A DNA stretch of 30,877 nt from a virus (IMGVR_UViG_2778261069_000012:1-30877); one strand, 5' to 3'. Positions 1 to 18,956 are shown, numbered from the stretch's first letter. Made by a program: numbers and translations. Notes: generated from the sequence alone by a model not told the origin.

Positions 1-450
1 ATGATCAATACTAAAACTCCTTTCGTACTTCTGGGTCTGAACCATGATGATAATCTGGATATGATGCATGTTTTCGCTAATCGTGGTTATAACATCATTC
101 GTCATTCCGAAGACTCCAATTTCTCAACTGCTTTCTATGCTCTTAAACGTAATGGTCGCCCTACGGTGATCGTAGACTGCTTTACTGATGAAGGTCGTGA
201 ACAATACAACAACATTCCGGCAATTATTGTTCGTGATGACCTGCCGTTTGATGTTCGTGAATATGACGTTGATTTAGGCTCTTACTATGGGATCGCCGAT
301 CTTGACCAGATTATGGCTGATTACGGTAAACAACCCGCTCAGGAAGCCCCAGAAGAAGATGAACAAGACGAAGATGACGACTACGCACCAATCTGTTTCT
401 CTTCTCAGAATGGCTTCTACGGTTACGATGAAGGCTTAGATATGCTGTAA
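1..450 (+). CDS. hypothetical protein with acidic C-terminus; may be 5'-truncated by the window edge
   Basis: 149-codon ORF starting at nt 1; E/D-rich tail (EEDEQDEDDDY); no motif recognised. Confidence 0.5.
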   Translation: MINTKTPFVLLGLNHDDNLDMMHVFANRGYNIIRHSEDSNFSTAFYALKRNGRPTVIVDCFTDEGREQYNNIPAIIVRDDLPFDVREYDVDLGSYYGIADLDQIMADYGKQPAQEAPEEDEQDEDDDYAPICFSSQNGFYGYDEGLDML

Positions 451-486
451 GTTAGGTCAACCCTTTGGCGTCTTGTCAAGGGGGTG

Positions 487-515
487 TTGACAAAATTTTC
501 TGACTTTTTTATGAT
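487..515 (+). promoter_or_regulatory. sigma70-like promoter candidate
   Basis: TTGACA (487-492), 17-nt spacer, TATGAT (510-515), about 55 nt upstream of the ATG at 572; sits in a cluster of TTGAC-type hexamers. Confidence 0.4.
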
Positions 516-571
516 TATCGCACTTGACAATTTTGAACCTATTTGACCTAGATTTGTAAAGAGGATGTAAC

Positions 572-904
572 ATGAAAGAATTTACCATCACTAAATCCCT
601 GTATGACTGGACTGTTAAAATCTCCGGCAAAACCGTTTCTGTAAGCCCTAGCCATGTAGAAAATGATTGGGGCGTATCCCGTGAAACAATCTCCCGTAGT
701 ATGCATGTTCCGTTTGATCTGATGTCCTTAACTGGTATTCATGCAATGCTGGAAGTTCGCGAACAATTCGAAGCTGGTAATCACAATGCGGCTCCAGTTA
801 GCAATCACCTTCTTACCAATGAAGAACGTGAAATCATCGAAAACTGGCGTTATGAGTATGCGATTCCTTACTACGAAGAAGATCAGGTAGAAATCGATTG
901 GTGA
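572..904 (+). CDS. hypothetical protein (110 aa)
   Basis: ORF preceded by AGAGGA Shine-Dalgarno about 7 nt upstream; no motif recognised. Confidence 0.55.
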   Translation: MKEFTITKSLYDWTVKISGKTVSVSPSHVENDWGVSRETISRSMHVPFDLMSLTGIHAMLEVREQFEAGNHNAAPVSNHLLTNEEREIIENWRYEYAIPYYEEDQVEIDW

Positions 905-993
905 TAAATTTCTATTATAAATAAAATTGTTCCGGTGATGCTGCCGGAACTAGGAGGACCAAATCACTAAACCGTTTAAGGGGAATTTTTACT

Positions 994-1869
994 ATGAATA
1001 CTGTTACTACTATGAATACTGCTACCGTTTCTTTTGATGCTTCTCTGACTGCTACAAAGAAAGAATGGCAAATCGCTAAACCTGCTTCAATGTCTCTGGT
1101 TGTTGATAACACCAAACCGCTTACCATGTCTACTTTGCAGATCGCGCAAATGATGAATCGCGTAGACCGTCATCGTGATATTAAGCGAACTGTTGATCGC
1201 CTTGTTGCTTCTGGTGTAATCGTCCACACGCCAACGGCGCGCGAACAATTAGAGGATAAATTTGGTCGTTCTCGTGAAATTGAAGTTTACCTTCTTGATG
1301 AACGTTCCTCTTACATTGTTGTTGCTCAGATTTCGCCAGAATTTACCGCTTTTATTGTTGATGAATGGAAACGACTGAAAGAAGAAAATGAAAAACTTCG
1401 CTCGACTCCTGTTAATCCATACGAAAACTTCGAAGAAACAGATTGGATTGAACTGGCGTTAGAGAAAACCCGCGAAAATAAACGCCTTGTTGAATTGCAT
1501 GTACGTAAAGCTATCGACACTCACAGCTTAACCCGTCTTCTGGGCGAAAAACGCGGCTCTGTGAAGGTACAAATGATTCTGAAAGGGTTATGTGCTGCTG
1601 GTGTCCTTGAGCGTCGTCTGGATGCTTCTGGTAAGCCTAACGGCTATGATCTGCTGCCTCCTGGCTATATGTTCGCTCGTATGTCGGCACACGGTCAGAT
1701 CGAGTTCACTGCTGATGCTATCCCGCATCTCGTAAAACTCGGATTGCTTGAAGAAGAAAAGGCAGCAACTTTGAAATTGCCACAGCCTAACAACTCACGA
1801 GCAATCGTCAATAATACTGCTTTGCTGATTCGTCAGAATGCTGGATCACTGGAACACTTCGGATTGTAA
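994..1869 (+). CDS. Rha-family phage regulatory protein (antirepressor-like)
   Basis: Residues 45-115 (LTMSTLQIAQMMNRVDRHRDIKRTVDRL ... YLLDERSSYIVVAQISPEF) resemble the Phage_pRha domain from memory; SD AAGGGGA upstream; intrinsic terminator follows. Confidence 0.6.
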   Translation: MNTVTTMNTATVSFDASLTATKKEWQIAKPASMSLVVDNTKPLTMSTLQIAQMMNRVDRHRDIKRTVDRLVASGVIVHTPTAREQLEDKFGRSREIEVYLLDERSSYIVVAQISPEFTAFIVDEWKRLKEENEKLRSTPVNPYENFEETDWIELALEKTRENKRLVELHVRKAIDTHSLTRLLGEKRGSVKVQMILKGLCAAGVLERRLDASGKPNGYDLLPPGYMFARMSAHGQIEFTADAIPHLVKLGLLEEEKAATLKLPQPNNSRAIVNNTALLIRQNAGSLEHFGL

Positions 1870-1877
1870 TAATTTTT

Positions 1878-1903
1878 GCCCCTGAATTTCAGGGGCTTTT
1901 TTG
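1878..1903 (+). terminator. rho-independent terminator after the Rha-like gene
   Basis: GCCCCT / AGGGGC stem, 7-nt loop, then TTTTTT. Confidence 0.7.
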
Positions 1904-1988
1904 TATCTGGAGTTTTTCGCTGAAACCCTGCAATACAGATTTTCGAAATAATCAATGACTTAGAGATGTGCTCAGTTTTGAGCGGATA

Positions 1989-2018
1989 TAAAAAAAGGCC
2001 AACCCCGAAGGATTGGCC
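1989..2018 (-). terminator. rho-independent terminator for the minus-strand cassette
   Basis: GGCCAA / TTGGCC stem with 10-nt loop; the minus-strand transcript follows it with a U-run (A8 on the + strand at 1989-1996). Confidence 0.6.
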
Positions 2019-2025
2019 TAGAGAA

Positions 2026-2256
2026 TCAAATTCCTGTTGCTTCTACCATTTCACCATCAACCTGAACAAAGAATTTCAAATCAACTTTATGGAGTGATTT
2101 GTAGAATTGAGCGATTGAAATACCGTGTTCGCTCAATACTTGTTCTTTTTCGGCTTTACCTTTCGGTGCTTGATAGTACGCTTTTACAATCGCTGCCAGT
2201 TGTTCACGATCAAAACGGCAAGGACGACCGCGAGTAGCTTTAGTAGTCATAGTCAT
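2026..2256 (-). CDS. small basic protein, putative DNA-binding (AT-hook-like RGRP motif)
   Basis: 76-aa ORF; N-terminal TRGRPCRFDREQL and HTH-like EHGISIAQFYKSL; co-oriented with the 200-aa ORF upstream of it. Confidence 0.5.
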   Translation of the reverse strand: MTMTTKATRGRPCRFDREQLAAIVKAYYQAPKGKAEKEQVLSEHGISIAQFYKSLHKVDLKFFVQVDGEMVEATGI

Positions 2257-2284
2257 TTCTCCAAATTAAAGTGAATGTTCACCT

Positions 2285-2887
2285 TTATTTAGAGGACTTA
2301 CATTTTATCGGAAAAAGTTCTCCATCGTCAACCGACATAAAGAACTCTGCCTTAATCCCGTACTTCTTCAACCGTGAATAGTATGTACCCCGACTTATAT
2401 CAACCTTGCGCAGCACTTCGAAGAACTCTTTAGGATCGTTGTAATAATGGCTATATCGCACGTTAGCGAGTTCAACGAACAATTCCCTTGTATCACCATA
2501 CCCTTTCTTGAATGCCTCGTTACGATAGCGTGTAACAGCGTGATTCAATCTCTTCTGTTTCAACACTTCTCGGATCGGCTTCCACTGCAACCTATAGATA
2601 GGACCGTCATCAATGCGATAATAACGCTTGATATCAAAATCAAACCAATCTCGGACTCTCCGAAACTCTGTATGTGATGTTCTATGCTTCTTAAAGAAGT
2701 TGTGAACGTCTGTATAACCATTATCACGGTAAAATTCTATTAAAATCTCTTTCGCTTCCTCACGACTAAAACCGGATGTTGTGTAATCAGTCTTTAAGTG
2801 CTTATGCTTGACTGGCAAACGGTATTCATGATCGGTACAAGACAAGGCTAATTCTAATTCATCTCTTTGTTTCTGATTAATTAGCAT
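2285..2887 (-). CDS. hypothetical basic, aromatic-rich protein with C-terminal HTH-like segment
   Basis: 200-aa ORF; SD AAGGGGG directly upstream on the minus strand; C-terminal [17 protein letters not shown] looks HTH-like; divergent from terL. Confidence 0.55.
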
Positions 2888-2974
2888 ACAACCCCCTTAA
2901 ATCTTAATACCCGTATTTATCAGAAAATCAACAATTTAATAAATACCTTCATATTTCGTAATGAGGGTAATTAC

Positions 2975-4879
2975 ATGAAACTGATTTCTAATAAGGCCAA
3001 ATTAAAAAAGATTCTCAGAAATGCAGCCAAATATATTACGCCACCGCCTAAGCTCCTTCCTTCTGAATGGTGCGAAGCGAATATGGTGCTGGTAGATGGT
3101 CCTCAAGCTGGGGATAAAGTTAAATTGCTGTCATTTCAGAAAGGTATGATTGATGCTCCTTTCCTTGAGAATAAGAAAAAATATGTTCTGATGACCAGTG
3201 CGCAGATCGGAAAGACTACCATCTTGAACGGTATCCTGTTTAACCAGATGGCTAACGATCCATGCAATATGATTATCGGACAATCAACCGCTAAAGAAAT
3301 GTCTCAATATCTCGCTGGTAAGATCCGACCGTCTATCGAAGCATGTGATGCATTAAAAGACGTGGTTACAGACAAGAATGATCGCAATGCTGTTAACAAC
3401 AATAACCAGCTACAGCTAAAAACGAATCACTTCCTATACATGGTATCGCTTACCAGTCCATCAACCCTACGTGGTAAGACCGCAAAGGTTGGATTGCTTG
3501 ACGAAATCGATGCTGCTACAGCCTCAGAAGAAGGTGATCCGGTGGCACTTGCTGCTAACCGTTTAACTACCTTTGGCGATGAAGGTCGATTAGTCGTATC
3601 CAGTACCCCGACCAGTAAGCTCGGAAGCATTAACCAGCAATGGTTATCAAGTGACATGCGTATGTTTTTTGTTCCGTGTCCTCATTGTGGGGAGCATCAA
3701 GTAATCGAGTGGGAAAACGTACAGTTTGAATGGCGTAACATCGATGGCAAGAACTTACCCGATCCTGATACCGCTCGTTATATTTGCCCACACTGTAAGC
3801 AATCATGGACAGAAGGGGAACGAATCAGGGCAGTAGCGCAAGGCGAGTGGAGAGCAACCCGTGAAAGTGAAGTAGCAGGATTCTGGATTAGCCGTCTGTA
3901 TTCACCTTTCAGCACGATCCGCGCTTGTGTGGTTGATTTTAGTCATGCGTGGCAATCCTTTGATTTACAATCATTTTATAACACCGTGTTAGGTAAGGTA
4001 TACGATGATCAGGACACGGCAGTAGAAGCAAATGAACTGGAACAACTCAAAACAGATGTTTCTATCGAGAATATCCCTGATGACGTGATTTTCTTGTGTT
4101 CGGGAATTGACCAGCAATTGGACCGCGCAGAATCTACCATCTTAGGTGTCGCGAAAGATAAGGTTTACATTCTGGATCACCGCAGCTTTTACGATCATAA
4201 CTGTGAACGATATGAATCACCTGTATGGGATAGATTAATCAACTTCCATAAAACCAAATTTACTACTGTATCGGGTGATCGTGTTCCTATGCTCGCCAGC
4301 TTCCTTGATACATCGAACGGTCGATTCACTCAAGCTGGATACCGTATTTGCGGCAAGTGGAAGAACTTACACGCTATCAAAGGTAGTTCTGCTGGTAACG
4401 CTCCGATCATTCCGGTTAAACCTACCCGCACAGGTGGTCATGAATTGCTTATGTTGGGTGTTAACGTGGGTAAAACTGCATTTCGTGAAATGTTGGCTAG
4501 GAACCTGAAAGATAATCCTCATATTGGCTTAGAAATATCAGACACCGTTCCTGATGATTATCTCGATCAGCTTTTAAGTGAATCTGTCAAGCGTACTACT
4601 ACTGGCGTGAGATGGGTAAAGAACCCAGGCGTTAGGAACGAGGCGCTCGACTGCGCCGTGTATGCTACAGCGGCTTCTCGCTACGTCCTTTCAAAAATGT
4701 CATGGGATAAACTCATTGCAATGAAAGACAGCTTAAACCGTGTTGTCGAAGAACCCGTAAAAGCTCCTAAATCGCAATCTAACGAGCAAATCGAAGAAAC
4801 TAAGCCAATCACACGACCGCAACGTCAAAACATCGCCAGACGCCCAAATAGAGGCCGTAGCTGGGTAACATCGTTCTAA
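2975..4879 (+). CDS. terL: terminase large subunit, lambda GpA-like family
   Basis: 634 aa; P-loop-like [10 protein letters not shown] near the N-terminus; CPHCGEHQ ... CPHCKQSW zinc-ribbon pair; position upstream of the portal gene; SD GAGGGTAA. Confidence 0.88.
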
Positions 4880-4885
4880 TAACTC

Positions 4886-4903
4886 GCCGTCCTTCGGGGC
4901 GGC
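4886..4903 (+). other. stem-loop with UUCG tetraloop just after terL
   Basis: GCCGTCC-TTCG-GGGCGGC (one G.U pair); no U-tract follows, so probably not an efficient terminator. Confidence 0.35.
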
Positions 4904-4951
4904 TTACTCCTAAATATTGTTAATCCAATAACAATTAAATAAGGGGTAATT

Positions 4952-5446
4952 ATGAGTTTAGAACTAATTCCCTTAGTAATTCGTAAAGGCGAAAAAATCA
5001 CGCTGGCGAATGAAGAGGGTGTAACAATTCAGGTAGGAAATAATAAAGGTATCATTTATCAGGTTGATGATTCTCCGGCTAATCACGAGATTAAAACCTT
5101 AGATTTTGCCGAGGGTAAATATACCATCGTAATAACTTTGGATGAAGAACTGGTATCAATGCAGGAACTAACTGTTTTGCCAGTATTCGCCAAACAATCC
5201 AAAAAAGAATATCTGCGGGAAATTATCGCCTTAATCGAGCAAGTTATTTTCGCCCGTTTATCTGGGGACGAAGCCGCATTATCTGCAATGACCGTGAAAG
5301 GGAATACTTTCGCCTATGAGTCATTGGGTGTTCTCCAGCAATTGAAGACTGATTATGAACGTCAGTTATCTAAAGTAATTCAAGCCGAACGACGTAAACA
5401 GGGAATTAGCCCTATTAAAAATATCAAATTACGTCTGACGCGATAA
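4952..5446 (+). CDS. hypothetical protein between terminase and portal
   Basis: 164-aa ORF with SD AAGGGGTAA; function assigned by position only. Confidence 0.5.
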   Translation: MSLELIPLVIRKGEKITLANEEGVTIQVGNNKGIIYQVDDSPANHEIKTLDFAEGKYTIVITLDEELVSMQELTVLPVFAKQSKKEYLREIIALIEQVIFARLSGDEAALSAMTVKGNTFAYESLGVLQQLKTDYERQLSKVIQAERRKQGISPIKNIKLRLTR

Positions 5447-5456
5447 GGGGTAAATC

Positions 5457-6968
5457 ATGTTTAATCTTTTTCGACGCAAAAAGGCGGTAGAAACTCCAGT
5501 TAAAACTAATCACCGCCAGCAACAACAAAAAATCTTTATCGACAAACAAGTAGAAAAATTCCAGAAATCTCTGGCGACTCGTAGTTTAGGACTGGTTGGT
5601 GATCGTATTGATGGATCACTTCAACAAGACACCATTACAGGAACCTTCAATAAGGCTCTCAAATCGAACGGTAAGCGCCTTTATGATCAGGGTCGTACTC
5701 TGGCCTTAAACACTTCCGTTGGCAGTCGCTACACGCAATACATCACCGATATGGTGGTTGGTACTGGTCTAGATCCGAAGCCGTCAATCGTTAAATCGAA
5801 TGGCAAACTTGATAGCGCACTGAATAAGCAGATCGAGAATGCTTTCTGGAAGTGGGCGCAGAATGCTAAACGCTTCTCTCGTAACGGTCGCTTTAACTTC
5901 CGTGAACTGCTGGTAATGGCTGAACGTGAGCGCGTTATGGGTGGTGAGTGCTTCATCGTTTTAACCAAAGAAAACAATGAGTTAAATGTTTCTATCCTGT
6001 CTGCTGATAAATGCGACTGGACGCTCAACCGTGAAGTAAGCAAAGAACGCGCTATCTATCAGGGGATCGAGTATGACGTAGAAACAATGCGCCCTGTTGC
6101 ATACTGGTTTCGTAAAATCAACCTACTGACTCAGACTTACACAGGTGATAACTATAGAGTCGAGGCTTCGCAAGTATGCCATTATTATCAACCACTTGCG
6201 GCTGAATCTCTGCGTGGTGTGACCGACTTCCTGCCAGTGATTAAGGATATCGCACATCAAGACGCATTCCGCTTAACTGCTATCGTCCAGAAACGTATTG
6301 CGGCTAGTTCTATGGGCTTTATCGAGCGTCCGAAAGATTCTGGTGACGATTTTGATACTGGTGAAGATGATGAACAATATCAAGCGCCGGAAGTAGTACA
6401 GGATTTTGCACCGGGTACTATTCAGGAATTACCGGAAGGGGCAACGATCAAGAGCATCCAGGCGACGCAAAGCGGTGATGACTTTAACAGCTTCAATGAT
6501 GCGATGTTTACTAGCGTATCAATGGGCTTAGGCGTGTTTAAACAGGGCTTAACGGGAGATTGTTCACAGATCAACTACTCAGCCGCACGTTTTGGTGAAC
6601 TACTTCAACGTAACCGCGTTAAAGCACTTCAAAACAAATTGATTGAAACAGTGGTGTTGCCAATTTTCGAAGCGTATCTACGCCATTATTCCGCGCGTGG
6701 TGTTGTTCCGATTCGTATTACTGCAATTCCACATATTATCGATAATACAACTATTATTCGTCCGCGTTTCGAGTCTGTCGATGTTATTAAAGACGTAAAC
6801 GCTGATATTGCTTTAATTGATAAAGGACTTAAATCACGTACTGCCGTTATTCTTGAACGTGGTGATGATCCTGAAAAAGTATTCTCAGAGATTCAAGCCG
6901 AAAAGAGCGCACTAAATATTATCGTTAATGGCGAGGGTGAAGAAAAAAATTCCCCAGCCGATCCCTAA
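5457..6968 (+). CDS. portal protein (lambda gpB-like family)
   Basis: 503 aa; follows terL; central and C-terminal segments (e.g. SGDDFNSFNDAMFTSVSMGLGVFKQGLTGDCSQINYSAARF) resemble the lambda-type portal family from memory. Confidence 0.82.
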   Translation: MFNLFRRKKAVETPVKTNHRQQQQKIFIDKQVEKFQKSLATRSLGLVGDRIDGSLQQDTITGTFNKALKSNGKRLYDQGRTLALNTSVGSRYTQYITDMVVGTGLDPKPSIVKSNGKLDSALNKQIENAFWKWAQNAKRFSRNGRFNFRELLVMAERERVMGGECFIVLTKENNELNVSILSADKCDWTLNREVSKERAIYQGIEYDVETMRPVAYWFRKINLLTQTYTGDNYRVEASQVCHYYQPLAAESLRGVTDFLPVIKDIAHQDAFRLTAIVQKRIAASSMGFIERPKDSGDDFDTGEDDEQYQAPEVVQDFAPGTIQELPEGATIKSIQATQSGDDFNSFNDAMFTSVSMGLGVFKQGLTGDCSQINYSAARFGELLQRNRVKALQNKLIETVVLPIFEAYLRHYSARGVVPIRITAIPHIIDNTTIIRPRFESVDVIKDVNADIALIDKGLKSRTAVILERGDDPEKVFSEIQAEKSALNIIVNGEGEEKNSPADP

Positions 6969-7013
6969 TAACCAACGGGGGCGCAATGCCCCCAATTAAT
7001 TAAAGGTGATTAA

Positions 7014-9017
7014 ATGCTTAAATTTCGCCGCGATCTTAACGGTTACGGTGGAGTTATTAATGAAGGGCATAACGATCAATACGAATTTGAAATTGCTTTC
7101 TCAAGTACACAGCCTTATCAGCGCCAATTTTGGGATGAGCAAAATCAAGAAATGGTGGTATTAGATGAAATTCTGGTACATACACCGGAAGCGGTTGATC
7201 TGTCTCGTCTGAATAATAACGCTCCGTTGCTGTTCAATCATAATTTCGATAATCACATTGGTGTTGTTTGTAACGCTCGAATCGATGCGGATAACGTAGG
7301 TCGTGCTCTGGTTAAATTCTCCAAGCATGGGACTTTGGCTAATGATATTCGTAATAAAGTCATTGAAGGTACGATGGAAAAAATTTCTGTCGGTTATGAC
7401 ATTAAAGAATATCACATCGATTATGCCAAAGGACAATTGATTGTTACTAAGTGGGCACCCTATGAACTCTCATTTGTCACCGTTCCCGCAGACGATACGG
7501 TCGGTTTAAATCGCTCTCTAAATACTATCACAGTTAATTTGGAGGCTAAACGCGATATGACTAAAGAACAAATCGAAGAAATCAAAAACGAAGAACCCGC
7601 TCAGGTTGAAGAAACTCCGGTAGAAGAAAATAAAGAACTGGAAGTTGAAGAAACTCAAGAGCGCCAAGTTGAAGAGAATAAAGAAAATGAAAATCTCGAA
7701 GACGGAAAAGACGCTGAACATCCTGAAAGTGTTGATGATGATAGTTCAACTGTTCGGGAAACAGAAGAAGTAAAAGAAGAACGTGAAGCCGCTCCGATTG
7801 AAGAAGAAAAAATCGAAGAAGTGGCTGAACGTTCCGAAGAAGACGAATTAGAAATCCGCGAGATCGCGCGGGAACTAAATATTGACGACGAAGAGTTAAA
7901 ACGCGCATTGGCAATTAAAGACATGACGCCGGAAGCATTCCGAACTAAGGCACTAAATAATCTTGTCAATGCTCAACGTAATAACGAACAACAAATTAAG
8001 GACTCTAAAATGGAAAAAACTTTTGACCTGAACAACGTAATTCGCTCTCTGGTAGATGGTGCTGCTCTGGGTGCTAACGAAGCTGAATATTCCGCAATGG
8101 CTGCTACTGCAACTATGCAGCGTGGTCGTGCTGCTCGTGGTGGCTCTGTATTCGTTCCGGCTGCTGCTATGCGTGCTGCTTCTGCTGGTAACACCAAAGC
8201 TGACCTGACCGCTATCACTGACGAAAAACTGATGACTGAATCCTACATCGAAATGCTGATGCCGGAATCTGTTCTGGGTCGTCTGGGTGTGACTGTTTAC
8301 AGTGGCTTGAACTCCCCGACCGCTATTCCAAAAATGACTAAATCCAGCGTTGACGCTTTCGGCTTCGTTGATGAAAACGGTGCTGCACCGGAAAGCAAAG
8401 CTGAATTTGCGAACGTGAAACTGTCTCCGAAAACTTTTGCTGGTGGCAACCCGATCAGCCGTCAGTCGCTGAAAACCGTTCCGGGCATCGCTACCCTGAT
8501 CACCGATCACATTAACAAATCTGTTCGGATCAAACTGGAACAACTGATTCTGTCTGATAAAGAAAATGCTCGTGGTCCGGCTGGTCTGGTTAAGCAACTG
8601 GTAGACGCTAGCCGCGTTACCAAGAAAGCTGCTTTCTCTTATAAAGATTTCCTCAAGGAGATTGCTCAGCTTACGGACGCTGGCGTTCCTGCTCAGGCGA
8701 TCAAGTTTGCAATGAGCGGTGCAACTGCTGCTGAACTGGAATCTACCCTGAAAGATAACGGCGTTTCCGGTTATATCATCGAAAACGGCAAACTGGCTGG
8801 TTACGAAGTAGTTACTTCTGGCGTTATCCCGGCAGACCACATCGTTCTGGGTGACTTCTCCGGTATTACTATCGGTGAGTGGGGAGGTCTGGAACTCGAC
8901 ATGGATCTAACTACATATAGGGATCGTGGTGCGGTAGTGCCTCGTATCTTTGTAGATTTGGACTACGTTGTAGCACAGCCGGAAGCCCTGAAAGTTCTTC
9001 ACATCTCCGCTGAATGA
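7014..9017 (+). CDS. prohead protease / scaffold-like linker / major capsid protein fusion (HK97 fold)
   Basis: 667 aa; N-terminal about 170 aa with LLFNHNFDNHIG motif typical of HK97-family prohead proteases; E/K-rich acidic linker (aa 185-300); C-terminal about 340 aa capsid-like; position after the portal gene. Confidence 0.78.
   Translation: MLKFRRDLNGYGGVINEGHNDQYEFEIAFSSTQPYQRQFWDEQNQEMVVLDEILVHTPEAVDLSRLNNNAPLLFNHNFDNHIGVVCNARIDADNVGRALVKFSKHGTLANDIRNKVIEGTMEKISVGYDIKEYHIDYAKGQLIVTKWAPYELSFVTVPADDTVGLNRSLNTITVNLEAKRDMTKEQIEEIKNEEPAQVEETPVEENKELEVEETQERQVEENKENENLEDGKDAEHPESVDDDSSTVRETEEVKEEREAAPIEEEKIEEVAERSEEDELEIREIARELNIDDEELKRALAIKDMTPEAFRTKALNNLVNAQRNNEQQIKDSKMEKTFDLNNVIRSLVDGAALGANEAEYSAMAATATMQRGRAARGGSVFVPAAAMRAASAGNTKADLTAITDEKLMTESYIEMLMPESVLGRLGVTVYSGLNSPTAIPKMTKSSVDAFGFVDENGAAPESKAEFANVKLSPKTFAGGNPISRQSLKTVPGIATLITDHINKSVRIKLEQLILSDKENARGPAGLVKQLVDASRVTKKAAFSYKDFLKEIAQLTDAGVPAQAIKFAMSGATAAELESTLKDNGVSGYIIENGKLAGYEVVTSGVIPADHIVLGDFSGITIGEWGGLELDMDLTTYRDRGAVVPRIFVDLDYVVAQPEALKVLHISAE
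7556..7900 (+). repeat. low-complexity acidic E/K/V-rich linker inside the capsid fusion ORF
   Basis: Reiterated GAAGAA / EE(x)K(E) motifs; generates spurious antisense ORFs. Confidence 0.6.
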
Positions 9018-9151
9018 ACTCCTGTAGAACCATCTGAACCTTCCCCCGATTTGGGGGAAGAAAATCTGATTCCTAAACCGGAAGAAGATTCCCAGACGGT
9101 TACGGCGAAAGCCACAGTTAAAAAACAACGTAAAACTAAAGAATAATAATT

Positions 9152-9178
9152 AGCCCTGCCTAACGGTGGGGCTTTTTT
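9152..9178 (+). terminator. rho-independent terminator downstream of the capsid gene
   Basis: AGCCCTGCC / GGTGGGGCT stem (two G.U pairs), TAAC loop, then TTTTTT. Confidence 0.7.
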
Positions 9179-9208
9179 GTATGTAAATACTCCATAAAGG
9201 GGGTAACT

Positions 9209-9499
9209 ATGTTCAAATTATCAGAATCACAATTATCAAGAATGTTCCGAAGTGCTCCTGTATTTTCGGTGGAAGGTGGTAAATCAATTCGTGCTTATCA
9301 TGAAATTACCACTACCGACGAACAAGGGGTAATTACAGAATCAGAATTTCTATTTTGTCGTGAGGGAGACTTAAATCAGGGTGATGTTGTCATTGTAGAC
9401 GGTGAACGCTTCAAAGTTCAATACGTTAAGCGCAATGGTGATAATACTTCTGATTGCTTTATTGCTCGTGCAGGGGGTACACATGCTCGCTACCGTTAA
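9209..9499 (+). CDS. hypothetical protein, head completion or head-tail joining candidate by position
   Basis: 96-aa ORF with SD AAGGGGGTAA; between the capsid and tail genes. Confidence 0.5.
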   Translation: MFKLSESQLSRMFRSAPVFSVEGGKSIRAYHEITTTDEQGVITESEFLFCREGDLNQGDVVIVDGERFKVQYVKRNGDNTSDCFIARAGGTHARYR

Positions 9500-9905
9500 T
9501 AATATGCCTAGACTGAAAATCAAACGCGCCTTGCAGGATATTATCGAACAAGATTTAGGTCTGGCTTTAAACGTAGAACAAACTCAGCAAGGCTTTAGTG
9601 ATGACGTGGTTTGTTGGATTACTGGCATGAATGAGACTTACACAAGGGTCCGTGGTGGTAATGCAATGCAAGCTGAATGCGTTATCGAAATGCAGTTGTA
9701 TTCTCAGAATCATGAAACCAAAATTCATGAGGGTATTTGCCAGATAATCCAGATTCAGCCTGATAATCCACGTTTTAAAGATTTGGGCTTCTCTATTTCA
9801 GATATCACTCCAGTAGCTTCTAATACCGATTATGACGATGATTCTAGTGATGGGGGTATCGTTGGGACACTTAGCCTTAAATTTTCTTATCTAGCGCGTT
9901 TTTAA
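9483..9905 (+). CDS. hypothetical protein, head-tail connector or tail completion candidate by position
   Basis: Start chosen at ATG 9483 (SD AGGGGG 5 nt upstream) rather than the SD-less ATG at 9402; overlaps the previous ORF by 17 nt. Confidence 0.5.
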   Translation: MLATVNNMPRLKIKRALQDIIEQDLGLALNVEQTQQGFSDDVVCWITGMNETYTRVRGGNAMQAECVIEMQLYSQNHETKIHEGICQIIQIQPDNPRFKDLGFSISDITPVASNTDYDDDSSDGGIVGTLSLKFSYLARF

Positions 9906-9914
9906 GGGGTAATA

Positions 9915-10748
9915 ATGAATATTACACAAGATAACTTAGACATTTTCACGGGGTCACATGTTGAAGTCTCCGTGTCTACTATGGTGGATAACCAGCCGGA
10001 CTTTTTCGATCCTGCATTTAGTCCTATCGAGAACATCGCAGCATTCCCGACGATAACCGAATCCACAGAGATCCAGACGTTAGAAGAGTATGATCAGGAC
10101 GCTACGGGGAAACTTGCTGGTTATCGTAAACTTGAATCAACTACGTTAGTAGTAAACCGTGTTCTGGATGACGAACATCAAGACATGTTGATGAAAGCGG
10201 TGAATGATAAAACTCCTTTACGCTTTCGTATGTTCTATGTTGTGAACTCTGGCTATAGTGCTGCTAACACAGGTTACTACGTCATTTTTGACGCTTATGT
10301 CTCGTCACATAAAACAAAATCCGGTGATAACAAAGTTACTACAATCGAGTTTAAATTAGAACCTGATGGCGGGATTCTAGATCGCGGTATTGCTACCGAA
10401 GGCCGGATCTTACGTCAAGGTGATTTTGGTTTGGGCGCTGGTGTACATCCATTCACAGGTCCGATTGATAGCGAAGCATTAGCCGGAAACCGTTTCGTAA
10501 CTTATCAGGGATCGAGCGTATCTAATCCATTTAGTGCTGATACTTCACTAATTCACGTTCAACCTAATGAAGATGGTGGATGGCAATTAACTTGCACCGC
10601 TTCCGGCGCACCACGTTTACGAGTTCGCACAGTCCAGAAAGACGGTAATTCTGGATGGGTGAAAGTGTATTCCACAGAAGAAAAACCGACACCAGCCGAG
10701 ATTGAAGCCGTTTCTATCCATGACCGGATCGACTTCGGGGAATACTGA
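9915..10748 (+). CDS. virion structural protein candidate (277 aa) with C-terminal KPTPAEI motif
   Basis: SD AAGGGGTAA; C-terminal EEKPTPAEIEAVS matches a motif in the downstream tail fiber; position just upstream of the fiber gene. Confidence 0.5.
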   Translation: MNITQDNLDIFTGSHVEVSVSTMVDNQPDFFDPAFSPIENIAAFPTITESTEIQTLEEYDQDATGKLAGYRKLESTTLVVNRVLDDEHQDMLMKAVNDKTPLRFRMFYVVNSGYSAANTGYYVIFDAYVSSHKTKSGDNKVTTIEFKLEPDGGILDRGIATEGRILRQGDFGLGAGVHPFTGPIDSEALAGNRFVTYQGSSVSNPFSADTSLIHVQPNEDGGWQLTCTASGAPRLRVRTVQKDGNSGWVKVYSTEEKPTPAEIEAVSIHDRIDFGEY

Positions 10749-10772
10749 TTGCTTCTCTAAATAAAACATGAC

Positions 10773-10806
10773 GCGGGAGGTTAACGCCTCCCTTATTCCT
10801 GTTTTA
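10773..10806 (+). terminator. rho-independent terminator
   Basis: GGGAGG-TTAACG-CCTCCC stem-loop followed by a T-rich tract (TTATTCCTGTTTTA). Confidence 0.6.
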
Positions 10807-10821
10807 TAGTGAGGTGATTCG

Positions 10822-13800
10822 ATGCAGTCGATCCAATTTAAACGAACAAATGTTTCTGGCAAAAAACCAACACCGGAACAATTACAGGTCGGTGAGGTAG
10901 CAATCAACCTTAAAGACCATGTTATTTTCACCAAAGACCGAGATCATGAAGTAGTTCAAATCTCTGTTTCTCCTGAAACTCACGCGGCACTAGAATCTAA
11001 AGTTGATGCTAACAAACAAGAATTGGATAGCACAATTGCAGTAAATGACCGCAATATTCACGCTAAAGTAGATGAAATTAAACAAACTACTGATGCAACC
11101 ATCGCAGCAAATCACGCAGAAATTAACAATAAAGTTGATGTAATTAAACGCGAAACCGACGCGACAATCGAGGCCAATAAAAATAAAGCTGCTTCCGATC
11201 TTGCTGGTGTTAAAGCTGAATTGTCGGATACCATCAACGCTAATAAAAATGCGGCTGCTGTAGCAACTCAGGAACTGGACACCCGCATCAATAAAAAAGT
11301 TGATGATATTAAATCCCGTACCGATGCAACCATCGTAAGCAATCACAAAGCAATCAATGACAAAGTTGATTTGATTAAGGCAGAAACTGACCGCACTATC
11401 GCAGCAAATCACGCCTATGCGGAAAATCAGTTAACTGACACCTACAATAACCTTACTGGTGTGATTGCAGCCAATAAGCAAGAGGCAGCGGATAACGTCG
11501 CAGCATTAACCCGTGATGTTGAAGCCAAAAATACAGCAATTCATAGCAAAGTTGACAATAACAAGTCTTACACTGATTCTGAATTGGCACGCTTAGAAAG
11601 CCGTATTGATGCAGCCGATGGATCAAGTGATGGTAAGTACATCAAAAAGCACGTAAACACTTGCACTGATGGCTATTTGCTGTCTAAGACCGCAAACCCT
11701 TTTGATGATCCGAGTGCTCTTAATCTTGATTACTTTGGTGCATTTCGCATGAATGACCTGGCGGGTCATATTGCAATGATCTTGCATGTTCCGCACCCAT
11801 CCGGCGTTAATCATGCTCGTGGTTTTGAGTTCACTTATGGGTCTAATCCGGTTCATACGGTAAGAACATACGGCTATGATGAATTGGGACATTTGGCATA
11901 TTCTCACCGCATGTATCATGAAGGTGATAAACCTACTCCGGCTGAAATTGGCGCATATTCGAAAGCAGAAATTGACCGCCTGTTCCAGAAGACGCTTAAT
12001 TTTGGGATCGAGGGCGGTTGGTTTAAACTCGGTAGTTTAACACTGCCACAGCAACACGGTCGCACGGCTAAGATTCGTTTAGTGGGTGGTAACGGTTATA
12101 ACGTCGGACAGAATGGACAAGCCAATATTATTGAACTGGTGATCCGTTGCGGCAACAATAGCCCGAAAGGTGTTGTATTCAATGCGTATTATACTATTTG
12201 GTATTATGAACAACATTTTTGTGCAATTCCTACCGATGGTGATAATTACGATCTTTACGCTTACTATGGTGCACATACAGGATTTGTTTTAGCAGAATAT
12301 CAAGTTTCTTCCGGTGGTGTTTCTTTAAACCTGTTGGATACTCCTGAATACCTGGGCGGTGAAAAACCTGTTGCAGATGAAATTTTTGATGCTCTTAACA
12401 TTTCATCGTTCAATAACTTTAGCAACCGTGGAACGTTAAATTTTGGTGGAAACCATCAAGGTCAATATGACATTGAGCATTTGAACGAACAACCGACAAA
12501 TGCTAAAAAGATGTTGCGTCGCTTCCGTAGTTCTGCTCCTGCCACTATCTGGCATGAGACAGTTGATGATAACGCATATCGTCTTGCTACTGGATACGAA
12601 GATACAAATCAGGAATTATTGCTGACAGCAACATCCGGGTTACATGTCAAGAAATTAACATTGGATGGCGGTGTTACTGGAAATTCTGGTATTGATATTC
12701 GTCGAGGACCAAACGAATCAAGTCATTTTAATTTCATGGATTATCGCACTGGACAAGATGTTCGTAATGGTTGGTTTGGTTTTGGTGATGGAACAACCAA
12801 AGATTTTATTTGGTGGAACGATAACGGTCAAAACTCTATAAACCTGATTGAAGATGGTGAATTGCATATTACTGGCGGTAAAGGCCAGAAAATTGTAATG
12901 AATAGCGAAGTTGCATTATCTGAAAATGCTCGTTTGGCTGTTAAAGGTGGCAATTATGGCTTAATTTTTAGAAATGATGGCGTTGGCTTCCATATTCTTA
13001 CCACAGATCTCGGTGATTCATTTGGACCGTGGAATACTCGTAGACCATTCAGCTATAATTTTGCGGACGGTGGATTATATTTAGGTGGTACTGAAACTGC
13101 TCGTTGTTTGCATCTGGGAATTGATGGTAGCACTCGTCTCGAAGACAACCTGTTCTTTAAAGCTGGTTCTCGTCAATCTATGGACTATATGGAACTCGTC
13201 CATTGGGGGGCAAGCAATACAGGTCGAAATAACGTTTTAAGTCTTCGTGACTCAAAAGGATTTTTCGCAGAATTTGAACGATTGGGTGATGATACCATTA
13301 AAAACACCTTCTTCGGGAAACTTAAAGTTAATCGTGGATCTGACGCAATCATCATGAATGCCGAAAGTGGCGATTCGTCTATATATTTGTTGGGTACTTG
13401 TGCTGATAATAACAACTGGTATATCGGTAAAGGTGGTGCTGATAATGGATTAGCGTTCTATAGCTATGCTACTAATGCTGCTATCAATATTACAAACGCG
13501 GGTGATATCGCGCTAAGTCCGAAAGGCGTCGAAATGACTCATGTCAATAACGTTCGGTTCTATGTTCATGGTGAACGTTGGACTGCTAGCCAATCTGGAG
13601 GCTGGGGCGATCAATGGGGATTAGAAGCGCCGATATTTGTCGATCATGGTTATGTTGGACCAGATAGCTATTATCCAATTATTAAAGGAAGAAGTTTAAT
13701 CACCAATCAAGGGTATACAACTGCCGTCGATTTTGGTATGCGTCGTGTTCCTCAAAATTGGGGGCAAGCTATTATTCGTGTTGGATCTGCGGAGGCATCG

Positions 13801-14232
13801 CCAGCGGCTGGTCATCCTCAAGCTGTATTCGAGTTCCATCATGATGGTACTTTCTATTCTCCTGGTAATGGTAACTTTAACGATGTTTATATTCGTTCCG
13901 ATGGTCGTCTGAAAATTAATGTTGAAGATTACGAAGAAAATGCGGTGGATAAGGTAAATAAACTCAAAGTTAAAACCTACGATAAAGTTAAATCTCTTAA
14001 TGACCGAGAAGTTATAGGTCATGAGATTGGTATTATCGCACAGGATTTACAAGAGGTATTACCGGAAGCTGTTAAAACCGCAAAAATTGGTGGTCTTGAT
14101 AACCCAGAAGAAATTTTAACAATTTCAAACTCCGCAGTGAACGCGCTTTTAATTAAAGCGGTCCAAGAAATGAGCGAAGAAAATAAACTTCTTCGTGAAC
14201 GTCTTGCTGCAATTGAAGCTAAATTAGGGTAA
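10822..14232 (+). CDS. tail fiber protein with C-terminal intramolecular chaperone (peptidase S74-like) domain
   Basis: 1136 aa; N-terminal KKPTPEQLQVGEVAINLKDHVIF fiber-type motif; four 22-aa KVDxIKxxTDATIxANH repeats; C-terminal GHEIGIIAQDLQEVLPEAV ... LLIKAVQEMSEENKLL typical of self-cleaving fiber chaperone domains. Confidence 0.85.
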   Translation: MQSIQFKRTNVSGKKPTPEQLQVGEVAINLKDHVIFTKDRDHEVVQISVSPETHAALESKVDANKQELDSTIAVNDRNIHAKVDEIKQTTDATIAANHAEINNKVDVIKRETDATIEANKNKAASDLAGVKAELSDTINANKNAAAVATQELDTRINKKVDDIKSRTDATIVSNHKAINDKVDLIKAETDRTIAANHAYAENQLTDTYNNLTGVIAANKQEAADNVAALTRDVEAKNTAIHSKVDNNKSYTDSELARLESRIDAADGSSDGKYIKKHVNTCTDGYLLSKTANPFDDPSALNLDYFGAFRMNDLAGHIAMILHVPHPSGVNHARGFEFTYGSNPVHTVRTYGYDELGHLAYSHRMYHEGDKPTPAEIGAYSKAEIDRLFQKTLNFGIEGGWFKLGSLTLPQQHGRTAKIRLVGGNGYNVGQNGQANIIELVIRCGNNSPKGVVFNAYYTIWYYEQHFCAIPTDGDNYDLYAYYGAHTGFVLAEYQVSSGGVSLNLLDTPEYLGGEKPVADEIFDALNISSFNNFSNRGTLNFGGNHQGQYDIEHLNEQPTNAKKMLRRFRSSAPATIWHETVDDNAYRLATGYEDTNQELLLTATSGLHVKKLTLDGGVTGNSGIDIRRGPNESSHFNFMDYRTGQDVRNGWFGFGDGTTKDFIWWNDNGQNSINLIEDGELHITGGKGQKIVMNSEVALSENARLAVKGGNYGLIFRNDGVGFHILTTDLGDSFGPWNTRRPFSYNFADGGLYLGGTETARCLHLGIDGSTRLEDNLFFKAGSRQSMDYMELVHWGASNTGRNNVLSLRDSKGFFAEFERLGDDTIKNTFFGKLKVNRGSDAIIMNAESGDSSIYLLGTCADNNNWYIGKGGADNGLAFYSYATNAAINITNAGDIALSPKGVEMTHVNNVRFYVHGERWTASQSGGWGDQWGLEAPIFVDHGYVGPDSYYPIIKGRSLITNQGYTTAVDFGMRRVPQNWGQAIIRVGSAEASPAAGHPQAVFEFHHDGTFYSPGNGNFNDVYIRSDGRLKINVEDYEENAVDKVNKLKVKTYDKVKSLNDREVIGHEIGIIAQDLQEVLPEAVKTAKIGGLDNPEEILTISNSAVNALLIKAVQEMSEENKLLRERLAAIEAKLG
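11065..11430 (+). repeat. in-frame tandem repeats (about 22-aa units) in the tail fiber shaft
   Basis: Four copies of KVD(E/V/D/L)IK(Q/R/S/A)xTD(A/R)TI(A/E/V)(A/S)N(H/K). Confidence 0.6.
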
Positions 14233-14238
14233 TTGGAA

Positions 14239-14258
14239 AGCGGGGAGAAATCTCCGCT
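14239..14258 (+). other. stem-loop with GAAA tetraloop between the fiber gene and the paralog cluster
   Basis: AGCGGGGA-GAAA-TCTCCGCT (8-bp stem, one G.U); no U-tract. Confidence 0.4.
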
Positions 14259-14270
14259 AAGGATTCTTAT

Positions 14271-14567
14271 ATGGGATATTGGGTAAGTAGTGAAATTAAT
14301 ACTAAAATCGATGCTTTAAAATGGCATGTATTTGATATTCCTAACGGCTATGGTACTGCTCGTGCTGGTGTCGCTGTAATGCGTCATAATGCTGGTGGTG
14401 GGTGGTCTGATGCACATATTAACGTAGATGGTTTGACCGTTGCTCGTCGTCGTGGTGGGACCAATTGGGGATCTACTATAAATTCGTTTGTTCCTGCTGG
14501 CTGCACCGTCTCCTTTGGTTTAGGGGGTGAAGGTGGTGTTGAATATTTTAAATTCATGGAGTTTTAA
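14271..14567 (+). CDS. small FDIPNGW-motif protein, paralog 1 of 3 (unknown function)
   Basis: 98 aa; SD AAGGA; shares WxxFDIPNG(W/Y), Gly-rich core and C-terminal TVSF ... YFKF with the two ORFs downstream. Confidence 0.65.
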   Translation: MGYWVSSEINTKIDALKWHVFDIPNGYGTARAGVAVMRHNAGGGWSDAHINVDGLTVARRRGGTNWGSTINSFVPAGCTVSFGLGGEGGVEYFKFMEF

Positions 14568-14569
14568 TT

Positions 14570-14876
14570 ATGGCTGGATGGATAAATCAAAGAATGTCAA
14601 ACGCTATTAGTATTTGGGCTAATGGTGGATATTTTGATATCCCCAACGGCTGGGTTACTGATTCATGCGGAATTGTTTTTGCTCATATGGAAGCCATTAA
14701 CGGTGCTGGTGATCTTGATTCTGAATTGGCTGTAAATGGATTGATTGAATCAGGTCATCATGCTGGTGATACTGGGAGTTGGGGGCGCTAGTTCTTTAGT
14801 TGGCGCTGGTGCTACCGTTAGCTTTACATTGGGTAAAGGTAGTTTGCATTATTTTAAATTCAGGAGAATGCACTAA
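14570..14876 (+). pseudogene. small FDIPNGW-motif protein, paralog 2 of 3, interrupted by a +1 frameshift at a G5 run
   Basis: Frame 2 reads M...GDTGSWGR then stops at 14789-14791; frame 0 continues ASSLVGAGATVSFTLGKGSLHYFKFRRMH to a TAA at 14874-14876, matching the paralog C-termini; the shift maps to GGGGG at 14781-14785. Confidence 0.6.
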
Positions 14877-15178
14877 TGGCATTTTGGGTAGATGGCGCTT
14901 TGGGGAATAGGGCGGGTAAAGCAAATCAAGGATGGTTTGATATTCCTAACGGTTGGACAGCCGACGCTTTCGGGACTATTTCATTCTGTGCTCATTCTTC
15001 CGGTGGTGGCGGTGGTGACTCTGAATTGCTTATTCATGGTTTGTGTGTTTCTGGAAGCCATAAGGGTCATGATTGGGGACAGATTCATTCTTGTATTGCA
15101 CCGCAAGGGGCGGTAATTACCGTTAGCACAAATAGGGGGATCGCTCATCTTCGTTATAGACGTTTGAGCAACCGCTAA
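14876..15178 (+). CDS. small FDIPNGW-motif protein, paralog 3 of 3 (unknown function)
   Basis: 100 aa; SD AGGAGA; ATG overlaps the restored stop of paralog 2 (TAATG). Confidence 0.65.
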   Translation: MAFWVDGALGNRAGKANQGWFDIPNGWTADAFGTISFCAHSSGGGGGDSELLIHGLCVSGSHKGHDWGQIHSCIAPQGAVITVSTNRGIAHLRYRRLSNR

Positions 15179-15232
15179 ATAAATAGAATTACGGGTATGT
15201 GCCCTATTGTTTAAAATAGAAGGAAAAGAATA

Positions 15233-15703
15233 ATGACTACTAAATTTGATATTTTTTCTGGTGGCCTCGTTGGTCTGTTTCTGCATGAAGAAGTAACTAA
15301 CACCGATCTAGACAGTGAAAGCTATCTGGAAATTCCAGAATGTGCGGCTTTCCCGGAAACTGGTGTAGAACGTTCTACTGTCGATGTTCCTAACTTCGGT
15401 GGTCCGTATAACCGTAAGCTGGTTGGTCGTATGTCTGTACCGGATATCGAACTTTCGATCAACTACATGCCGGGTAACGAAGTACACGAAAAACTGATTA
15501 AAGCAACCGAAGACGGTAAGCGCGTACAGATTAAAATTGCTTACTACATCGACGCTACGAAAAAATCTGGTGTACATATCGCTTATAACGGCTTCCTGTC
15601 TAAAACTACCATGACTGGTGGTGAGGATGCTGTAGTAGGCCGTACCTTCACCTTTGTAGTAGATGGTGCTCCGGTTAAACAAGCTGTTTTCCAGAAACTC
15701 TAA
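15233..15703 (+). CDS. major tail (tube) protein candidate
   Basis: 156 aa; directly upstream of the chaperone-position ORFs and tape measure gene; followed by a strong terminator, as expected for a highly expressed structural gene. Confidence 0.6.
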   Translation: MTTKFDIFSGGLVGLFLHEEVTNTDLDSESYLEIPECAAFPETGVERSTVDVPNFGGPYNRKLVGRMSVPDIELSINYMPGNEVHEKLIKATEDGKRVQIKIAYYIDATKKSGVHIAYNGFLSKTTMTGGEDAVVGRTFTFVVDGAPVKQAVFQKL

Positions 15704-15712
15704 TATTATCTA

Positions 15713-15737
15713 GCCATCCTTCGGGGTGGCTTTTTTG
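15713..15737 (+). terminator. rho-independent terminator with UUCG tetraloop
   Basis: GCCATCC-TTCG-GGGTGGC followed by TTTTTT. Confidence 0.75.
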
Positions 15738-15785
15738 TTTCCAATTCTAAATAAACATATCTAATTAACTTAAGAGGAAACAATA

Positions 15786-16094
15786 ATGAATATTAATGAA
15801 ATGTTAGCCGCACTTTCTCCGAAACGCGAATCTCTGACCATCGGTGGATTTACTTTCTATGCTCGCCCTATGTCAGTAAAAGAATTTAACGAACATGTTT
15901 TCAATACCGATAAAGAAGACCGTGATGAACGTTCTATTCTTCGTTGTATTGAAGATGAAGACGGTAAGCCAGTATTTGAATCTATTGAACAAGTTAAGGC
16001 ACTGTATACTAACGTCCGCAGTGAATTAATCGGTTTGGTTGCTCAAGCGTCATTGATGCAAGATCCGGCGGTAATTGAAAACGAGGTAAAGTAA
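15786..16094 (+). CDS. tail assembly chaperone candidate (gpG-position)
   Basis: 102-aa ORF immediately upstream of the tape measure gene; assigned by position only. Confidence 0.45.
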   Translation: MNINEMLAALSPKRESLTIGGFTFYARPMSVKEFNEHVFNTDKEDRDERSILRCIEDEDGKPVFESIEQVKALYTNVRSELIGLVAQASLMQDPAVIENEVK

Positions 16095-16123
16095 ACCCGC
16101 TTCTGAATTTCTATTTCCGGCAA

Positions 16124-16465
16124 ATGATGAGATCGGGGCTTAGTAAAGATGAAATGGATAATATGCCAATCACTCTATTTTGGAAATTATACATTTTCGA
16201 CACCTACTTAGAACCACAAAGCCCCGCGTTTCATGATATGCAGAATGCGATGTTGCAATATTCCATGTATATGACGTCGCAAGGAATGACACGCGAAACT
16301 GCAAAGAAACTCAAGCCTAGCCAATTCCAATTAATTAGAGAAGAAAAACTCTTTAAAACTAAAGAAGAACTGGAAGAAATTGCACGCAAGAAAGAAGAAG
16401 AACGTAAAGCGGCAATGCTGAACATGTTTGATCCATCTTTGCTTGAGAAACTCAGAAGCGGTTAA
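16124..16465 (+). CDS. second tail assembly chaperone candidate (gpT-position)
   Basis: 113-aa ORF in the -1 frame relative to the previous ORF; weak SD; assigned by position only. Confidence 0.4.
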   Translation: MMRSGLSKDEMDNMPITLFWKLYIFDTYLEPQSPAFHDMQNAMLQYSMYMTSQGMTRETAKKLKPSQFQLIREEKLFKTKEELEEIARKKEEERKAAMLNMFDPSLLEKLRSG

Positions 16466-16476
16466 AGGGGTAATTT

Positions 16477-18906: not shown

Positions 18907-18912
18907 TTAAAA

Positions 18913-18955: not shown

Positions 18956-18956
18956 T

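Follow-up and report, generated by a model that had tools for sequence, protein, structure and literature searches.

The region at positions 451-571 of the window, a 30,877-nt stretch of temperate prophage DNA, is predicted to hold the strongest promoter of the prophage, driving a small variable gene and a Rha-like regulator gene. We hold, with slightly more belief than doubt, that this promoter is gated by an array of TTGAC half-sites for a putative repressor, probably encoded by the prophage, and that the left sites of the array serve at the same time as a 3' hairpin of the upstream gene. A protein that recognizes the hexamers by sequence, probably this repressor, would occupy them, compete with sigma-70 for the -35, and block the start site. 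The very strong promoter would thereby be silent in the lysogen, and the operon would fire upon loss of repressor binding. The left three hexamers also make up a stem-loop at the 3' end of the transcript from the upstream gene, orf149. The features of the region and of its neighbors are collected in Table 1.

Table 1. Features of the promoter region, the operon, and the candidate regulator genes (window coordinates)
Feature	Position	Strand	Remarks
orf149	1-450	+	Upstream gene, co-oriented with the operon
Site A, TTGACC	455-460	-	Outer left site; plus strand TAGGTCAA at 453-460; invariant in 46 variants
Inner stem-loop, CCCTTTGGC-gtctt-GTCAAGGGG	461-483	+	Directly after the orf149 stop codon
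Site B, TTGACA	474-479	-	Left half of the palindrome TGTCAA-N6/7-TTGACA; invariant in 46 variants
Site C (-35 hexamer), TTGACA	487-492	+	Kept in 45 of 46 variants; TTGGCA in one
-10 hexamer, TATGAT	510-515	+	17-nt spacer; TTTTTATGAT invariant in 46 variants
Site D, TTGACA	524-529	+	About +2 to +8 of the predicted transcript; CACTTGACA invariant in 46 variants
Site E, TTGACC	543-548	+	Outer right site, 13 nt after D; TTGACCTA at 543-550; invariant in 46 variants
Shine-Dalgarno (SD) AAGAGGA and ATG (572) of the first gene	560-574	+	Junction at which alternative first genes are joined
orf110	572-904	+	First gene of the operon; no family, no fold match
Rha/Ant-like gene	994-1869	+	Second gene of the operon; PHROG 63 'anti-repressor Ant', 1.5e-15
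Terminator-like palindrome GCCCCTGAAtTTCAGGGGC and T-run	1878-1896	+	Closes the two-gene operon; convergent genes beyond
p76	2026-2256	-	Small; Fis/NtrC-like HTH motif; candidate regulator
p200	2285-2887	-	Two tandem three-helix plus beta-hairpin units, p76-related; candidate regulator

Core promoter and hexamer array

The near-consensus promoter TTGACA-17-TATGAT of the original prediction is confirmed. It matches sigma-70 at 11 of 12 positions and is the only 11/12 match that a promoter scan finds in 30.9 kb. A good SD and ATG lie downstream, and the -35 and -10 are essentially invariant in the 46 variants compared below. Transcription would start near 522-523, as judged from the usual 7-nt distance to the -10. 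Sigma-70 promoter-like sites are under-represented relative to shuffles, with 27 against 44.2+/-6.8 in 1-20000 and 19 against an expected 25.8+/-4.2 in 20001-30877. The standing of this promoter as the sole 11/12 match, together with the depletion of promoter-like sites elsewhere, argues for the operator reading.

The core promoter is surrounded by copies of TTGAC[A/C], five in 94 bp, of which two are on the minus strand (455, 474) and three on the plus strand (487, 524, 543). Every hexamer named in the original prediction is found (GGTCAA 455-460, TTGTCA 473-478, TTGACA 487-492, TTGACA 524-529, and TTGACC 543-548), with one change of reading: TTGTCA at 473 is present, yet the minus strand offers a better reading, a perfect TTGACA at 474-479. 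The 8-bp inverted pair said to bracket the promoter, TAGGTCAA (453-460) and TTGACCTA (543-550), is 100% complementary. Concentric with it is a second 8-bp inverted pair that had been overlooked, TTGTCAAG (473-480) and CTTGACAA (523-530). Each flank, read 5' to 3', is TTGACA-N13-TTGACCTA, and these two units are inverted about the core promoter. Within a unit, TTGACA and TTGACC are 19 bp apart from start to start, so that the members of the outer pair, A and E, each lie exactly 13 nt beyond B and D, respectively. The -35 is the fifth copy of the hexamer, located between the two flank units. Sites B and C together make a palindrome, TGTCAA-N6/7-TTGACA, of 18-19 bp over the -35.

It is hardly credible that this cluster is an AT-rich word that piled up between genes by accident. 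TTGACA is not enriched across the window (15 found, 21 expected), which would fit chance, but none of 2000 dinucleotide-preserving shuffles reaches five sites per 100 bp, and only 8 reach four. The hexamer columns are moreover selectively invariant, and sites are kept in more than one genus. Of TTGAC[AC], the window contains 27 copies, and nowhere else are there at least 3 per 100 bp. The composite pattern TTGAC[AC]-N8-25-TTGAC[AC] occurs twice in the window, both times within 451-571. The density of the cluster, matched in 0 of 2000 shuffles, argues for operators.

A search for the same repeat elsewhere in the genome, proposed with the original prediction, covered the window and the left arm of the prophage of E. 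coli strain KSC64 and finds no second TTGAC[AC] cluster. A further operator set, such as lambda-type switches have at their repressor gene, is thus missing from the prophage, and this counts against the operator reading.

The hexamers had also been suggested to be reiterated -35 elements. The sequence does not support this: no -10-like hexamer lies 16-18 bp from A, B, D, or E on either strand, and the scan finds a single promoter. By reading, the would-be partners are CCTAAC for B, AAGCCT or TAAGCC for A, and CCTAGA or CTAGAT for D. The partner of E would be TGTAAC, and its start would fall inside the coding region. The lack of -10 partners for the extra hexamers is a further argument for operators.

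The hexamer is nonetheless the sigma-70 -35 consensus, and a possible objection to the operator reading is that RNA polymerase itself is the ligand. A host factor or sigma-70 region 4 is, for the same reason, a possible reader of the hexamers. In the fullest form of this explanation, the hexamers are true -35-type elements for sigma-70 region 4. They would act as weak tandem or divergent promoters, as sites where polymerase docks or is trapped and so becomes locally concentrated, or, in the case of D, by slowing escape or causing an early pause. Sites B, C, and D are exactly the sigma-70 consensus and are invariant across E. coli and Salmonella while most phage proteins diverge to 40-60% identity; sigma-70 is essentially the same in the two hosts. 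In the E. coli lineage, site D also has as its best partner a -10-like TAGATT, separated from it by a 19-bp spacer. This pairing is lost in the Salmonella relatives, however, and it is not obvious what use polymerase would have for the strict 13-nt gaps or for the inverted symmetry. A pause element of the sigma-dependent kind behind D was considered and rejected, since the bases there are not conserved and the variants have AATTTT, AACTTT, AACATT, or ATCTTT in place of a -10-like element. Together with the missing -10 partners, these points leave direct use by polymerase rather improbable.

Conservation in the E. coli lineage

A total of 46 distinct variants of the region was assembled from IMG/VR contigs, metagenome contigs, Logan/NCBI contigs, and E. 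coli genomes. The IMG/VR loci were collected by protein and by the composite DNA pattern, the latter giving 31 loci. From the stop codon to the SD, variation is seen in 1 of the 30 hexamer columns and in 47 of the 79 other columns (Fisher p=1.8e-8), and the four hexamers other than the -35 have no variable column in 24 (p=7e-8); the E. coli variants are closely related, and these column counts are therefore not independent events, but the contrast is strong all the same. The -10 is invariant along with its T-run. Both 13-nt gaps never change in length, and the sequence inside them varies freely. Indels fall between B and C, where the gap is 6 nt in most variants and 7 nt in the window, and in the promoter spacer, which is 16 nt in 4 of the 46 variants.

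The hexamers thus outconserve their surroundings at fixed spacing, and they overlap the -35 and the +1 region, which argues for the operator reading. Of the two roles originally proposed for them, that of regulator-binding sites agrees best with this selective conservation at constant spacing, and it makes the hexamers putative operators.

In the 5426 complete E. coli genomes, the cassette is found at 56 places in 54 genomes, with at most 2 per genome and a median of 1, and none of these places is on a plasmid. A mobile promoter cassette or MITE was rejected, as every examined locus is located between an orf149-type gene and the first gene of the operon. A pattern scan of the GTDB species representatives gives one match, in a Falkowbacteria MAG, which is chance-like (~0.3 expected).

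Relatives in Salmonella and Proteus

Syntenic prophages of Salmonella, of Proteus, and of one unassigned sample were recovered through homologs of the 200-aa protein p200. The Salmonella relatives have the layout TGTCAA-N6/7-TTGACA(-35)-N30/31-TTGACA. All five Salmonella loci with the Rha operon keep sites B and C as TGTCAA-(GGGG(G)TA/TGT)-TTGACA, followed by a -10 of TATCAT, TAACAT, or TAGCAT at a 17-18 bp spacer. Site D lies 36-37 bp after C, start to start, with a spacer of 17 or 18 alike. Site A (GGTCAA) is found 13 nt upstream of B in two of the five, and E is absent from all five. In three of the five, a GGTCAA in the orientation opposite to E lies over the SD. Since Salmonella keeps B, C, and D, lacks E, and has A in two loci, the core of the array (B, C, and D) is old and the outer pair A/E lineage-specific. 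The loss of E in Salmonella counts against the operator reading.

The conserved core is set in a diverged genome. The Salmonella proteins are 38-60% identical to those of the window (TerL 56-57%, Rha-like protein 43-52%), except for p76 (74-93%) and for some of the homologs of p200 (as high as 74%) and of p60 (as high as 80%). That the spacing of B, C, and D is kept despite this divergence is an additional argument for operators.

The Proteus relative has neither the operon nor the promoter. The most divergent relative, L072 (sample SRR6474907), has a plain TTGACA-17-TAGTAT at the equivalent promoter position. It uses the same words at another consensus promoter, a point that also favors operators. 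This second promoter, TTGACA-18-TATAAT at L072 5753-5806, sits in a non-coding region upstream of a p60-type gene; its -35 overlaps an inverted GGTCAA (TTGACAgcaGGTCAA), and a further TTGACA lies downstream.

The hairpin downstream of orf149

The original prediction had overlooked a hairpin that follows the upstream gene and is built from sites A, B, and C. The inner stem-loop extends to 456-491 through the pairing of A (GGTCAA) with C (TTGAC). Site A is thus the outer 5' arm of the hairpin, and site B is part of the 3' arm of the inner stem. E. coli, Proteus, and two Salmonella lineages all have a stable hairpin at this position, after the orf149 stop, but with differing sequences (-17 to -21 kcal/mol; z -2.6 to -4.1). 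Among the 46 variants, the hairpin is retained in most, at -14 to -20 kcal/mol, and weakened in a few; the changes are C->U opposite G, plus one compensatory change of C-G to A-U.

These hairpins speak for an explanation that needs no dedicated regulator. Sites A, B, and C would build the orf149 stem-loop, which would end or stabilize the transcript and insulate the promoter, and D and E would be conserved as 5' untranslated leader, with a role in mRNA stability or translation, or as initially transcribed sequence. The shared TTGAC word would then stem from complementarity to the constrained -35. The Proteus relative, which retains the hairpin without any promoter, fits this explanation, as does the pairing of A with C in every lineage that has A. 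It does not explain why D and E are invariant though they lie outside the hairpin, or why D is the same hexamer as C at a distance that is conserved in Salmonella. Site B is TGTCAA even where it is in the loop and not in the stem (L068, L070), while other loops vary freely; it is partly or wholly in the loop in all five Salmonella relatives. In Salmonella, A cannot pair with E because the two copies are oriented alike, and the whole region folds no better than shuffles (z -0.44). The hairpin is also probably no canonical terminator, as no U-run adjoins it: a U-run begins only 4-5 nt beyond the extended stem, Proteus has none at all, and the terminator scan makes no call. We consider an array without a regulator unlikely, though it deserves more weight than the other alternatives.

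The hairpin accounts in part for the conservation of A, B, and C, and to that extent it weakens the operator reading. It is not the full explanation, because D and E lie outside it and because B is kept in loops that otherwise vary. The same two facts, B retained in the loop and D and E outside any hairpin, speak for operators. No Rfam match was found over the homologous cassette in the KSC64 prophage (L018, 9400-17000 scanned, E<=1).

The operon and its exchangeable first gene

The upstream gene orf149 belongs to no family, and its product has a strongly acidic tail, EEDEQDEDDDY, at the end. The 3' third of the gene forms a single conserved block with the cassette behind it, while its N-terminal part differs between relatives.

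The first position of the operon is occupied by unrelated genes behind an identical cassette: orf110, a 48/51-aa basic ORF (MNTTKKIDGRKNPNRKPW...), or a 59-aa ORF. The exchange junction lies right at the RBS (window 560-575; L045 3130-3150; L063 1600-1630). In the Salmonella relatives, ORFs of 57-64 aa share a VDFxERQRR..EEIDR motif with the 48/51-aa ORF. No relative of orf110 was found among the GTDB species representatives. The 110-aa gene is thus a swappable cargo position, which the original prediction had missed. A cassette that stays constant while the first gene is swapped at the RBS is expected of a self-contained regulatory module.

Homologs of the Rha/Ant-like protein are annotated as Rha family or match PF09669. 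Alleles of this gene with different N-terminal domains are found behind the same cassette. An 85-bp segment, 1311-1395, has 77.6% DNA identity to the gene of a 'Roi'/DNA-binding protein in Vibrio phage ICP1 and its relatives. This cross-genus match of Roi type, which was unexpected, comprises 82 records.

The composition of the operon raises the question of autoregulation, in which one of the operon's own products, the Rha-like or the small first protein, would bind the hexamers. Arc at P22 Pant and Aca proteins at anti-CRISPR promoters are parallels. A strong promoter with inverted repeats, followed by a variable small gene and a conserved gene with DNA-binding-type domains, fits such a circuit, and a motif cluster unique to this promoter fits a regulator from the same operon. 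Against it, the hexamers remain identical where the first gene is replaced by unrelated ORFs, and the Rha-like protein has differing N-terminal domains behind the same cassette and the low identity in Salmonella given above. Since the hexamers stay constant when the genes change, the first gene product and the variable Rha domain are poor binder candidates, and autoregulation has a slim chance. As a regulator, orf110 was rejected: it has no family and no DNA-binding fold in its model, and it is exchanged in relatives. The Rha-like protein, mosaic behind an invariant cassette, is an unlikely binder.

Candidate binding proteins

The putative repressor that would gate the promoter may be sought among three paralogous proteins with an HTH-like motif, whose presence in the prophage is in keeping with the operator reading. 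These are p76, p200, and p60, the last encoded in relatives (L018 12429-12611, minus strand). The p76 protein and the p60 homolog are paralogs (BLASTP 6e-7), and p200 contains a p76-related unit (E=0.017). The AlphaFold model of p200 has a mean pLDDT of 77 and consists of two tandem units of three helices plus a beta-hairpin, for which a fold search gives no significant match. A profile of p76 and p60 against PDB sequences has an NtrC-family, Fis-type HTH as its best match, at a non-significant E=0.55. All three proteins are HTH-like by motif only and are candidate regulators on that basis. The family carries the Fis-like motif 'GIS..FYK.LKK.DIK', and its database members are all 'hypothetical' and restricted to Enterobacterales.

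The GISIAQFYK segment of p76 is almost invariant across E. coli, Salmonella, Proteus, and Providencia, while neighboring genes diverge to ~50%. A near-invariant putative recognition helix would be compatible with an invariant DNA target. The helix is equally conserved in relatives without B and D at this promoter, and this weakens p76 as the specific binder. The link of p76 to the hexamers is only a lead.

A bolder proposal joins the polymerase and repressor ideas. The extra hexamers would be deliberate copies of the host -35, read by sigma-70 region 4 or by a TTGACA-recognizing HTH-like protein of the prophage, with p76 as the best candidate, and the promoter would be gated by direct competition. 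This proposal is a long shot.

Several other proteins were considered as binders. LexA is unlikely, as the LexA box CTGT-N8-ACAG has 0 matches in the whole window. By comparison with their consensus sequences by eye, neither IHF (WATCAANNNNTTR), Fur, CRP/FNR, CusR, and MarA nor promoters for sigma-32, sigma-E, and sigma-54 fit both the word and the arrangement. The RutR box (TTGACCAnnTGGTCAA), compared in the same way, shares the half-site TTGACC alone.

Upstream of the p60 gene, outside the window, L018 12799-12904 has AGCAC..TTGCTAAAGCGG twice and a palindrome TTTAGCAAAAAG-N8-CTTTTTGCTAAA. These repeats may be a separate operator set.

Comparison with known control regions

One close layout is that of P22 immI (Pant, arc-ant, Arc/Mnt operators), where, as here, a very strong promoter is followed by a small first gene and then by an Ant/Rha-like gene. 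Pant must be off in the lysogen, and short symmetric operators overlap the core promoter, as the putative ones do here. The differences lie in the parts. There is no sequence or fold similarity between orf110 and Arc. P22 has a divergent mnt, whereas here the upstream gene is co-oriented and no mnt-like gene is present. P22 has two compact operators, and here there are five dispersed hexamers with unrelated operator words. The arc product is an autorepressor, whereas the first gene here is exchangeable and therefore cannot be an autoregulator as in P22.

The P2-type C repressor binds two direct repeats that flank part of the early promoter, and in heteroimmune relatives the sequence, length, position, and spacing of the repeats differ (PMC1904268). 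These operators are similar to the present array in being short direct repeats at a fixed distance around a core promoter. Here, however, two direct-repeat units are inverted on both sides of the promoter, and the fifth copy is the -35. A gene for a C-like repressor was not recognized in the prophage.

Lambdoid CI/Cro operators at PR and PL resemble the array in having a palindromic element of 18-19 bp over the -35 and more sites nearby. What sets it apart from lambdoid phages is the lack of a CI/Cro homolog, of a second operator region elsewhere in the prophage, and of a divergent promoter for a repressor. The spacer of the palindrome also varies by 1 bp among relatives, unlike that of lambdoid operators.

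Antirepressors controlled by LexA (Gifsy-type, PMC3121763; 186 Tum) share with this region an antirepressor-type gene under tight transcriptional control that would serve as the induction trigger; the window differs from them in having no CTGT-N8-ACAG box. The acr-aca operons (PMC12658196) have, as here, a strong promoter bracketed by inverted repeats and a hypervariable first gene swapped at the RBS. Their downstream gene is a conserved HTH autorepressor, whereas the gene here is Rha-like, more conserved than the first gene, and has DNA-binding-type domains. Aca or Acr homology is not seen here, and the Rha-like protein is mosaic while the repeats are invariant. The region thus works like P22 immI-type or P2-type control regions but is a member of neither by the features compared above.

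Should the hexamers be operators, this 100-bp cassette would offer the best way into the silencing and induction of this E. coli/Salmonella prophage family. If the copies of the -35 do act by competition, the module would decide between lysis and lysogeny as the master switch in a type of enterobacterial temperate phage not described before. In addition, the cassette is the mark of a cargo position: unrelated small genes replace one another there, and the promoter in front of them is unchanging, very strong, and presumably tightly gated. Swap positions behind such promoters often hold anti-defense or host-takeover genes. Otherwise, it is a conventional promoter-operator region, and its value is mainly one of local annotation.

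The prophage and its host range

The content of the window is that of a temperate prophage, with a gpA-type large terminase (2975-4879), a portal, a protease-capsid fusion, tail genes, an endolysin, and a large serine recombinase (27903-29597). Among 50,697 deposited phage genomes, DNA searches for near and for distant matches find neither a close relative of the prophage nor a DNA relative of 451-571, and the best TerL match is 44.6% identical. The first 3 kb is matched in 58 of the 5426 complete E. coli genomes (~1%). In E. coli strain KSC64 (L018/L019), the prophage interrupts ycdX. Members of the prophage family (the window; L018/L019 of KSC64) are ~35-38 kb with a serine recombinase and a full head, tail, and lysis set. 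Neither a CI/Cro-type repressor nor a replication gene was recognized in the prophage, and no homolog of C, Arc, or Mnt was found in it.

Terminator-like sites are over-represented in the window relative to shuffles, with 24 against 16.4 in 1-20000 and 22 against 8.4 in 20001-30877. The palindrome that closes the operon, GCCCCTGAAtTTCAGGGGC, is built from the same word as a set of iteron-like repeats, TTTTTGCCCCTGAAA, located outside the window. In L018, 7 copies of this repeat lie ~21 or 42 bp apart at 13129-13317, and in the relatives the repeats occupy an ORF-free stretch of ~1.4 kb upstream of orf149, directly left of window position 1. The repeats might mark an origin or a packaging site, or else form an array for a regulator. 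One Salmonella relative, L068, has 5 copies of the repeat at the equivalent place.
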